Shown piece by piece: positions 27,882 to 29,051 of a stretch of 31,782 bases of DNA (position 1 is the first letter of the stretch; each line of letters opens with the position of its first letter). The DNA comes from a virus. Taxonomy: Duplodnaviria; Heunggongvirae; Uroviricota; Caudoviricetes. The DNA is taken from the IMG/VR virus record IMGVR_UViG_2645727991_000022. One strand, written 5' to 3'. Below the pieces are notes generated by a model. It saw nothing but the letters and a program-made list of their open reading frames with translations. It had not been told where the DNA came from and searched no databases. A program made the translations under genes and the position numbers.

Positions 27882-29051
27882 CTAGGCTTCTGTAAGGAAT
27901 TTAGCCACACCATCAGCCGGATTAATGCCACCAGTGTGAATTGTTCCTAATTCCTCTGGTGTCACAGATGTTGTAGGCCAAACAAGCATGTCGTTAAAAT
28001 ACTTGTCAATTTTAATTCTTTCTAGCTCTTTGAAAAGATAATCATCAGTGTTATTACTTTTTATACAATTTCCATAATATGCTGCTGCACTAGCTACTAT
28101 ATCAGCAACTTGAATTTGCGGATATTCAATTGATGAATGAAAGGTTAAAGAACGAGCTTTCAATGGTAGATCAAAAGCCCTTCGATCATAACCATATGTT
28201 TCAGGTTCTTTTGTGTAATCCATGAATGTATCAAATAAACCTTTTCGTTCATGAATTGCTTTGGAATCATCATGCTTAATATGATACCCATTTGGATAGA
28301 TTTTATCCCATTCAATGCAATGTTTAAAGAATGATGGGATGGCAGGATCAAGCATGTATTTTTGAGTATCCTCTAGAATATCTTTTACATCACTTCTTGT
28401 GATACTAATCCTATCAATTGTACTAATAAATTTTTCATCAGTTGTGCAAGTTTTCAAGTGATCAACAGAAGCATAAAATCCTTCAATAGACTCTTCATCC
28501 TGATACTTAATCATTTTCATGAATTGCTCATACATACGGTATGTAGGTTCTTTTCCACAAAACACAGGAAGGCAATAATAAAAATAATTAGATAAAGCTA
28601 AATTTTGACCGTCTTTGTAAATGTCAATGCCACGATTATAACTCCAGCTTTCAATCAAAATATCAACTATTTTCGTAGTCAACATATAACTTTTGTCTAT
28701 AATAAATATTTTTACATTTTCAGTAGTAATATACTTACTTTCCAATAACCGTATTATTCCATCTTGTCCTGATTTTCTACGTCTTAGCGTTTTGAAGTGT
28801 GCTTCATCAGGTGATTTACTTCCGGTTAGTTCAAGTGCCTTAAGTGCATCTGTCTTACTTATTTGACAAGAACCTAATGTGAAACAGAATTGCTTCGAAT
28901 CTAAGAGATTACCGCCAGTATTGCCAGACTCATCGAAAAAAATGTCTGGCTTCAAATACAATTGCCTGTTCTTCTTCGCAGCTAGCTCTCTAGTTGTCTG
29001 ATTTTTCTTGCTTTGTTTAGCTGCACGTCTTTGTTGACTATTTTTTCCCAT
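27882..29051 (-). CDS. DUF3800-like protein with basic N-terminal tail
   Basis: 389 aa. IFFDESGNTG near the N-terminus and ...YPQIQVADIVASA... near the C-terminus match the DESG and Q-x-AD signatures I recall for DUF3800. The first ~30 aa are Lys/Arg/Gln-rich. A purine-rich AGAGAGA precedes the ATG. Confidence 0.6.
   Translation of the reverse strand: MGKNSQQRRAAKQSKKNQTTRELAAKKNRQLYLKPDIFFDESGNTGGNLLDSKQFCFTLGSCQISKTDALKALELTGSKSPDEAHFKTLRRRKSGQDGIIRLLESKYITTENVKIFIIDKSYMLTTKIVDILIESWSYNRGIDIYKDGQNLALSNYFYYCLPVFCGKEPTYRMYEQFMKMIKYQDEESIEGFYASVDHLKTCTTDEKFISTIDRISITRSDVKDILEDTQKYMLDPAIPSFFKHCIEWDKIYPNGYHIKHDDSKAIHERKGLFDTFMDYTKEPETYGYDRRAFDLPLKARSLTFHSSIEYPQIQVADIVASAAAYYGNCIKSNNTDDYLFKELERIKIDKYFNDMLVWPTTSVTPEELGTIHTGGINPADGVAKFLTEA

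Follow-up and report, generated by a model that had tools for sequence, protein, structure and literature searches.

What does a lone gene of the DUF3800 family do for the prophage that carries it, and does it act for or against immunity? The question is raised by IMG/VR record IMGVR_UViG_2645727991_000022, a stretch of 31,782 nucleotides (nt) from a virus of the class Caudoviricetes (hereafter the window, meaning the whole stretch that was analysed), in which an open reading frame (ORF) of 389 amino acids (aa) with an ATG start occupies positions 27882..29051 on the minus strand, confirming the gene call of a preliminary description made from the DNA letters. That description had proposed a single-gene defence or anti-defence factor. 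The analysis reported here leads us to favour a predicted one-gene DUF3800 nuclease cassette with a role in anti-phage defence, a reading drawn from homologue comparison and a structure model, to which we assign a probability of about 50%.

Profile searches revealed a match to the Pfam family DUF3800 (PF12686) at E = 9.5e-10, scoring 39.8 bits where the gathering cut-off is 21, which bears out the family membership proposed earlier. The match runs through the profile from end to end (positions 2-148 of 149) and is stretched over residues 37-325 of the protein, so that about 140 residues must be insertions, mostly a helical insert. Both motifs on which the earlier assignment had been based are present, the DESG motif within DESGNTG (codons 40-46) and the Q-x-AD motif within QIQVAD (codons 312-317). 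In addition, the protein matches PHROG family phrog_12991 near full length (E = 7e-130, residues 33-388), and all close homologues carry a precomputed PF12686 hit. The assignment as such is not new, as identical proteins are already annotated as "DUF3800 domain-containing protein" in E. coli, Enterobacter and Klebsiella. Structure prediction with AlphaFold2 gave a model (predicted local distance difference test (pLDDT) 86.7, predicted template modelling score 0.83) with an RNase H-like fold, and RNase HII also predominates among the weak Foldseek matches; the Pfam profile RNase_HII gave no hit at E ≤ 0.1. This purely structural relation to RNase H, as predicted, is in agreement with published descriptions of DUF3800 as having "structural homology to RNase H2" (PMC7736814) and an "RNase H fold with a catalytic rearrangement" (PMC10910872).

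A word-indexed search retrieved 209 homologues, while an exhaustive search yielded 934 representatives after clustering at 50% identity (E ≤ 1e-3), 167 of them below 1e-30. Conservation was read from two sets: 112 representatives of the wide family, with 25-46% identity to the window protein, and a clade of 64 homologues with 43-77% identity from Enterobacterales, Aeromonas, Vibrio, Shewanella, Pseudomonas, Halomonas and others. Across the 112 representatives D40, K120, W248 and D317 are invariant, and E41, G43, T45, G46, D130, E134, D261, S263 and Q314 are conserved in at least 90%. RNase H-fold enzymes carry carboxylates at the corresponding secondary-structure places, and when read at the sequence level against the type-2 RNase H signature, the protein has D40 and E41 paired on beta-1, conservation at D261 and D317, and GNTG at the position of GRG. 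The invariant K120 follows beta-3, where the DSK motif of type-2 RNase H lies. The least conserved part is the helix pair 184-230 within the insert. At the C-terminus, a motif spanning codons 358-380 reaches a mean conservation of 0.77 within the clade, compared with 0.49 across the wide family, and residues 370-389 have a pLDDT below 50; being conserved yet not confidently folded, the motif suggests an interaction or regulatory segment.

The basic N-terminal extension noted in the preliminary description proved to be a real feature of the protein. Residues 1-35 comprise 7 K, 4 R and 5 Q with 1 acidic residue, giving a net charge of +10 and an isoelectric point (pI) of 11.6, compared with a pI of 5.3 for the body, in which no 35-residue window exceeds +5. 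All 64 aligned full-length clade members (64/64) possess the tail, with a mean length of 35 residues and a mean net charge of +9.9, and positions M1, N4, S5, R9 and K12 are conserved in at least 90% of the clade (MxKNSxxxR signature). Because of this conservation, we conclude that the tail is translated and is no start-codon artefact. Alternative starts at the TTG codons 31 or 33 were considered and ruled out by the tail conservation together with DNA similarity that reaches exactly to the ATG. Members of the wider family are mostly 355-365 aa long and start a few residues before the DESG strand, leaving the tail columns with 82% gaps; among the sequences compared, the tail is restricted to one gammaproteobacterial clade. 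A single helix is predicted for residues 3-32 (pLDDT 75-87), and it is plausible that the tail binds nucleic acid, as had been suggested.

Comparison of the window by blastn with loci encoding proteins of about 70% identity aligned only 27904-29051, that is, the ORF from its start codon to just before its stop. Outside this phage lineage, none of the window's neighbouring proteins stands beside DUF3800, save in a Leclercia locus, where a 41% relative of the 104-aa protein does so; when 145 flanking ORFs were compared across 17 species-dereplicated loci, each family was confined to 4 loci at most. The notion of a single-gene unit is therefore well founded. Downstream of the gene lies an intrinsic-terminator-like hairpin (Table 1), in a region where 3 terminator-like sites compare with 0.8 ± 0.8 after shuffling. 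It had been described as shared with the convergent operon, and it does overlap the end of the convergent plus-strand gene (27188..27832), whose stop codon at 27830-27832 falls inside the hairpin loop, but the U-tract is found on the minus strand only, a pattern that fits the DUF3800 transcript alone. The claim that the gene is driven from the divergent intergenic region fared similarly: a promoter-like site with 9 of 12 consensus matches is present there, but the match is no better than chance, the region holding 13 such sites against 9.5 ± 2.7 in shuffles, i.e. without enrichment.

Homologues of about 70% identity have signals of their own. Past their stop codon, at a distance of about 20 nt, they carry a different GC hairpin with a T-run, both in P2-like prophages and in chromosomal islands, and a conserved upstream promoter region of about 170 nt travels with the ORF in eight loci. 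Within this region are hexamers resembling promoter elements, a ribosome-binding site (GGAGGT) and a perfect inverted repeat of 11 bp, CTCACTATTTT-N11-AAAATAGTGAG; the upstream sequence in the window differs from it. We concluded that the DUF3800 gene is a self-contained cassette of promoter region, ORF and terminator. As a separate observation, the inverted-repeat arms of this clade and the direct repeats AATAGTAGAC of the window have the core AATAGT(A)GA in common, which may point to a shared operator or have arisen by chance, the DNA being AT-rich.

The whole window represents a single prophage-like element of low G+C content (37.6% overall, 33.8% for the DUF3800 gene). Chromosomes of Enterobacteriaceae have about 50-55% G+C, and the lower values of the gene and the window fit horizontally acquired DNA. 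The recognisable genes of the window comprise lysis, structural, packaging and cargo genes, and neither a repressor nor a replication module was recognised among them. In assemblies encoding the identical protein, a large serine recombinase lies just past the window end and is followed by modABC/acrZ (locus L098, 4772-6592), and the cargo slot of this Enterobacteriaceae prophage has the recombinase end on one side and the terminase genes on the other. Annotated entries for the identical protein come from E. coli, and those of its 90% cluster from Enterobacter and Klebsiella as well; in a megablast-level search of 5,426 complete E. coli genomes the region was absent, although some assemblies of this species do encode the exact protein. 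One related prophage of E. coli, whose terminase genes share about 66% DNA identity with those of the window, lacks DUF3800 and has other cargo in the slot next to terS, including an Old-family nuclease (PADLOC Old, E = 5e-75), from which we conclude that the slot is a variable hotspot able to hold defence genes.

The locations of homologues bear out the suggestion of defence or prophage cargo. In Klebsiella, a homologue of 70% identity directly follows Shango (SngB 2e-186, SngC 6e-280) and Septu (PtuA 8e-172, PtuB 3e-78) genes in a tmRNA-site island with an integrase, the neighbours of which are P2/186-like or P4-like elements, and in E. coli a homologue of 69% identity is found in a P2-like prophage between ogr-like and gpD-like genes. 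An integrase island of Aeromonas (locus L104, 4684-8357) presents, in this order, a TIR protein, DUF3800, a PDC-S66-like protein and Hachiman (HamA 4e-114, HamB E = 0), while in Vibrio the gene has a NACHT protein on one side and, on the other, a type I-B retron reverse transcriptase (RT; 9e-102) with an AAA_15/21 protein. Yersinia keeps a block of a 451-aa FRG protein, a 191-aa protein and DUF3800 in three Tn3-associated contexts (L107-L109, 3488-7170), which could be a lineage-specific multi-gene version. Other neighbours among the 145 ORFs include type I restriction-modification, LmuB, PIN, integrases and transposases. Of the 191 plasmids that carry more distant relatives, 134 are conjugative, and 50,697 sequenced phage records contained only 2 weak partial hits with 28% identity. 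Homologues are thus not confined to housekeeping contexts; their neighbourhoods are rich in mobile and defence genes, and this recurrence, taken qualitatively, places the gene among defence-island or mobile cargo genes. With regard to the Aeromonas locus, we also observed that the two proteins flanking DUF3800 there match different halves of the PADLOC candidate PDC-S66: the upstream TIR protein corresponds to positions 148-239 of the profile and the downstream 353-aa protein to positions 4-136.

In the reading that we favour, the DUF3800 protein would be a metal-dependent nuclease with a predicted RNase H-like (type-2-like) core, whose carboxylates D40, E41, D130/E134, D261 and D317 would cut nucleic acid of an incoming phage. 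By analogy of fold, the substrate would most plausibly be an RNA:DNA hybrid, cut in its RNA strand, or else a structured intermediate of replication or transcription. The polybasic N-terminal helix would add affinity for nucleic acid, the variable helical insert and the C-terminal motif may handle target recognition or control, and the lysogen would be protected by superinfection exclusion or abortive infection. We favour defence over anti-defence because homologues are placed between complete defence systems and are nearly absent from phage isolates. A narrower version, in which lone polybasic-tailed DUF3800 proteins constitute an unrecognised one-gene anti-phage system whose RNase HII-like site destroys hybrid intermediates of the phage or of the infected cell, with the basic helix as a nucleic-acid handle, is put forward tentatively and with considerable doubt. 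The helix might also bind the repeats AATAGTAGAC at its own promoter and so provide self-regulation.

Several results weigh against a defence nuclease. Searches with the DUF3800 protein returned no family at E ≤ 0.1 from PADLOC v2 (PADLOC-DB v2.0.0), where the presence of a model for the DUF3800 protein of type VII retrons was not checked, no matching model from NCBIfam and, when a profile was run against PDB sequences, not a single hit up to E = 10; alignment with E. coli RnhB by hhalign gave a probability of 0.3%, so the RNase H link is one of fold level only. Some settings are devoid of defence genes: a small Pseudomonas island among housekeeping genes, and an integrated mobile element of E. 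coli with TraD and shufflon/PilS (L084-L089, 5354-8200), in which a homologue of 47% identity, present in 361 E. coli contigs, lies 130 nt downstream of a MobA/MobL relaxase gene and is co-directional with it. This homologue may be co-transcribed with transfer genes, and in one variant of the element it stands beside DUF1380 and YubE. The adjacency to defence genes is itself a qualitative listing of loci, uncorrected for enrichment against background, and guilt by association fails to separate defence from anti-defence or addiction roles. Finally, the literature holds no published biochemical activity for any DUF3800 protein, and the sole paper to reconstitute a DUF3800-containing system left its member, Csx32, without an assigned role (bioRxiv 10.64898/2026.08.25.746378).

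The alternative that survives best is an anti-defence nuclease directed at immunity that depends on hybrids or small nucleic acids, which might for example cut CRISPR RNA in the R-loops of CRISPR effectors, degrade the multicopy single-stranded DNA of retrons or remove nucleic-acid signals. Immune complexes that contain hybrids would be suitable targets for an RNase H-type activity, and the carriers, namely prophages, elements resembling integrative and conjugative elements and the many conjugative plasmids counted above, are in line with such a role, as is the E. coli homologue next to the relaxase gene with its variant beside DUF1380 and YubE, since both are genes typical of plasmid leading regions. 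Nevertheless, the placement in chromosomal defence islands amid complete defence systems is typical of defence, and the near-absence of the gene from phage records, with only the two weak partial hits, also speaks against anti-defence. Anti-defence genes are typically small early genes, unlike a 389-aa gene with its own promoter and terminator in a lysogen slot. On balance, we consider an anti-defence function unlikely.

Rather improbable, in our judgement, is an element-maintenance function without a part in immunity, in which the nuclease would process the element's own primers, R-loops, or recombination or transfer intermediates. The RNase H-like fold would serve such a function, and the relaxase neighbour and the conjugative plasmids are consistent with it. 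However, synteny with a replication, recombination or transfer gene is absent across the loci, the distribution is patchy, as illustrated by the complete E. coli genomes without a megablast match, and the window gene resides in a cargo slot, away from any recognisable replication module. Moreover, related prophages manage without DUF3800 and carry other cargo in its place.

The GC-rich palindrome that had been pointed out in the divergent region beside the gene is present and non-random, with an 11-nt perfect inverted repeat arising in 7 of 1000 simulations and one with at least 9 G/C in 0 of 1000, but it is not specific to DUF3800. In the Old-carrying prophage without DUF3800 (L115), it lies upstream of a homologue of the 214-aa protein encoded in the window, and the element of about 65 nt (window 29293-29366; L115 4001-4064) is 80% identical including the loop between these two prophages, whose terminases are only about 66% identical. 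It follows that the palindrome belongs to the cargo region of the phage family. It occurs in intergenic cargo spacers, has a U-tract on neither strand, and is kept in the two related IMG/VR phages with homopolymer arms whose lengths co-vary (C7/G6 in the window, C9/G9 in L001); a protein-binding site, an RNA element and a cassette boundary are among the possibilities for its nature.

Eleven DUF3800-associated RNA motifs, DUF3800-I to -XI, have been reported (PMC5737381). No Rfam family reached its gathering threshold in the window, nothing credible appeared at E ≤ 10 in 24500-31782, and structured RNAs associated with DUF3800, including drum and skipping-rope, were found neither in the window nor in 11 homologous loci. 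For the spacer 29052-29476 (425 nt), folding surpasses that of shuffled sequences on the plus strand only (z = -3.1, 0 of 100 shuffles; -0.96 for the minus strand), the strand on which the 245-aa protein, and not DUF3800, is encoded. A toxin or RNA-partnered module with a non-coding RNA in this upstream spacer, similar to type III toxin-antitoxin or guide-RNA systems, could draw on the known motifs, the folding of the spacer and the conserved GC hairpin with its co-varying arms, but is very improbable, as Rfam stays below threshold in the window and the homologous loci, the spacer is not kept with the gene in other lineages, the hairpin element recurs in the related prophage lacking DUF3800, the structured strand is that of the 245-aa gene, and the mobile unit of the 70%-identity clade has only its short promoter region.

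Table 1. Features of the DUF3800 gene, its surroundings and the prophage (window positions).
Feature	Position	Strand	Remarks
Coding sequence, long-form DUF3800	27882..29051	-	predicted RNase H-like (type-2-like) core, ~130-aa helical insert, polybasic N-terminal helix, conserved C-terminal motif
Polybasic tail, codons 1-35	28947-29051	-	MGKNSQQRRAAKQSKKNQTTRELAAKKNRQLYLKP; one alpha-helix predicted (residues 3-32)
FFDESGNTG; codons 40-46 DESGNTG	28914-28934	-	end of beta-1; candidate catalytic carboxylates D40, E41
Codons 120-134: K120, D130, E134	28650-28694	-	helix after beta-3; from conservation and predicted secondary structure
Codons 260-263 HDDS	28263-28274	-	end of beta-4; D261 candidate third carboxylate
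Codons 312-317 QIQVAD (QxxD motif)	28101-28118	-	start of long C-terminal helix; Q314, D317
Codons 358-380, WPT..VTPEELGT.H.GG.NPA	27912-27980	-	conserved motif, low-confidence fold
Intrinsic-terminator-like hairpin	27812..27839	-	GCCCAC-ATTACA-GTGGGC (27822-27839) plus T6; 42 nt past stop codon
Putative 5' control region	29056..29135	-	consensus level only
Shine-Dalgarno-like GAGAG	29056-29062	-	consensus
Promoter-like TAGACT-17-TATATT	29130..29102	-	best minus-strand site, 9/12 matches
Direct repeats AATAGTAGAC x2	within 29083-29101 and 29117-29135		overlap -35 element and start-site region
GC-rich palindrome TCACGCCCCCC/GGGGGGCGTGA	29293-29303 and 29337-29347	none	divergent spacer beside DUF3800
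Host HAD hydrolase (ybhA-like)	1-843		left prophage boundary
Lysis, tail, head, portal, terminase genes	about 1600-24600	-
Cargo block	25160-31782		order: EAL protein; p104, DUF2971 and 214-aa protein; DUF3800; 245-aa HNH-like protein; p161; HNH endonuclease
EAL-domain protein	25160-25834	-	stand-alone
Three-gene unit p104 (phrog_2100) / DUF2971 / 214-aa protein	26021-27832	+	214-aa protein with N-terminal hydrophobic segment
245-aa protein	29477-30214	+	divergent from DUF3800
Perfect inverted repeat, ~17 bp	30675-30747		AACCATTAGCACATAAT...ATTATGTGCTAATGGTT
p161	30738-31223

Further cargo surrounds the gene (Table 1). The stand-alone EAL-domain protein (E = 3e-22; phrog_32988), encoded just upstream of the small terminase gene, is possibly a cyclic-di-GMP phosphodiesterase carried as prophage cargo. 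Within the three-gene unit convergent with DUF3800, the DUF2971 protein matches the PADLOC candidate PDC-S31 (E = 8e-37), which adds to the defence setting of the DUF3800 gene next to it. The p104 homologue in the Leclercia locus adjoins DUF3800 without a DUF2971 or 214-aa gene, and the related prophage L115 (4119-4745) encodes a 38% homologue of the 214-aa protein without DUF2971; the parts of the unit are therefore separable. On the other side, the 245-aa protein has an N-terminal CxxC...H...N pattern typical of HNH nucleases, weak PADLOC matches only (PDC-M01B 2.8e-4, PtuB 0.017) and no Pfam match, and may be another cargo nuclease. The adjoining 520-nt non-coding stretch 30215-30737 contains a perfect inverted repeat to which spurious microRNA hits from Rfam can be traced. 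In comparison with the related IMG/VR phages L001 and L002, similarity is interrupted between 30490 and 31218, which identifies p161 as a further variable cargo gene.

DUF3800 is widespread, the long form alone accounting for the 934 cluster representatives given above, and it recurs in immunity contexts, namely in type VII retrons and as accessory genes of Cas12a2/a3 and Cas13; eleven orphan structured RNAs are associated with it as well. The gene described here is one of many guilt-by-association candidates, yet it is an unusually simple handle on the family, since the stand-alone form offers the simplest test case, with one gene, one host and standard coliphages, and its cassette travels in E. 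coli, Klebsiella and Enterobacter, by way of hotspots in prophages and of defence islands. Should it defend, an RNase H-type effector would join the single-gene systems and aid the reading of its CRISPR and retron relatives. If it does not, the placement near Shango, Septu, Hachiman and retrons would need explaining, with anti-defence as the obvious candidate. A lone DUF3800 defence gene would be the first DUF3800 acting without a retron, a CRISPR effector or a partner RNA, and would provide the first biochemical activity for the family as well as a clue to what its CRISPR and retron relatives and the eleven orphan RNA motifs do.

In the literature searched, a stand-alone long form with a polybasic helix that moves as a cassette via hotspots and islands was not found described, nor was it found in PADLOC v2. 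Comparison with known families and systems nevertheless reveals several points of contact. Like the Pfam family DUF3800, the protein combines an N-terminal DE with a C-terminal QxxD, and differs in its roughly 140 extra residues and the 35-aa polybasic helix. By sequence it does not belong to type-2 RNase H (RNase HII, RNase HIII and eukaryotic H2A), from which it is set apart by GNTG in place of GRG, the helical insert of about 130 aa, extra beta-hairpins and the conserved D130/E134 after beta-3; the extra-carboxylate arrangement has been called a catalytic rearrangement (PMC10910872).

Published work ties DUF3800, as a predicted nuclease of RNase H fold, to type VII retrons and to Cas12a2/Cas13 loci (PMC7736814, PMC10910872, PMC12669027). 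With type VII retrons, in which DUF3800 is an effector or is fused to the RT, the protein shares the Pfam domain, the RNase H2-like predicted fold and the link to defence (PMC7736814), but the window has neither an RVT domain in any ORF nor an msr/msd-type RNA, and the retron proteins are without the Q of QxxD (PMC7736814), which is kept here as Q314. The CRISPR-linked DUF3800 proteins that have been described (PMC10910872, PMC13594972, PMC12669027, bioRxiv 10.64898/2026.08.25.746378), i.e. TPR-DUF3800 with Cas12a2/Cas12a3 and Csx32 of Cas13 CASK operons, likewise have the same domain and are predicted nucleases without demonstrated activity; unlike these accessory proteins, the one studied here stands in a window with no TPR domain, Cas domain or CRISPR repeat array. 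The prophage-borne one-gene defence nucleases, of which P2 Old is an example, have an unrelated fold and family, Old being an ATPase-Toprim protein, but resemble the DUF3800 cassette in that a lone nuclease gene, equipped with signals of its own, occupies a variable slot, and it is an Old homologue that occupies this very slot in the related prophage.

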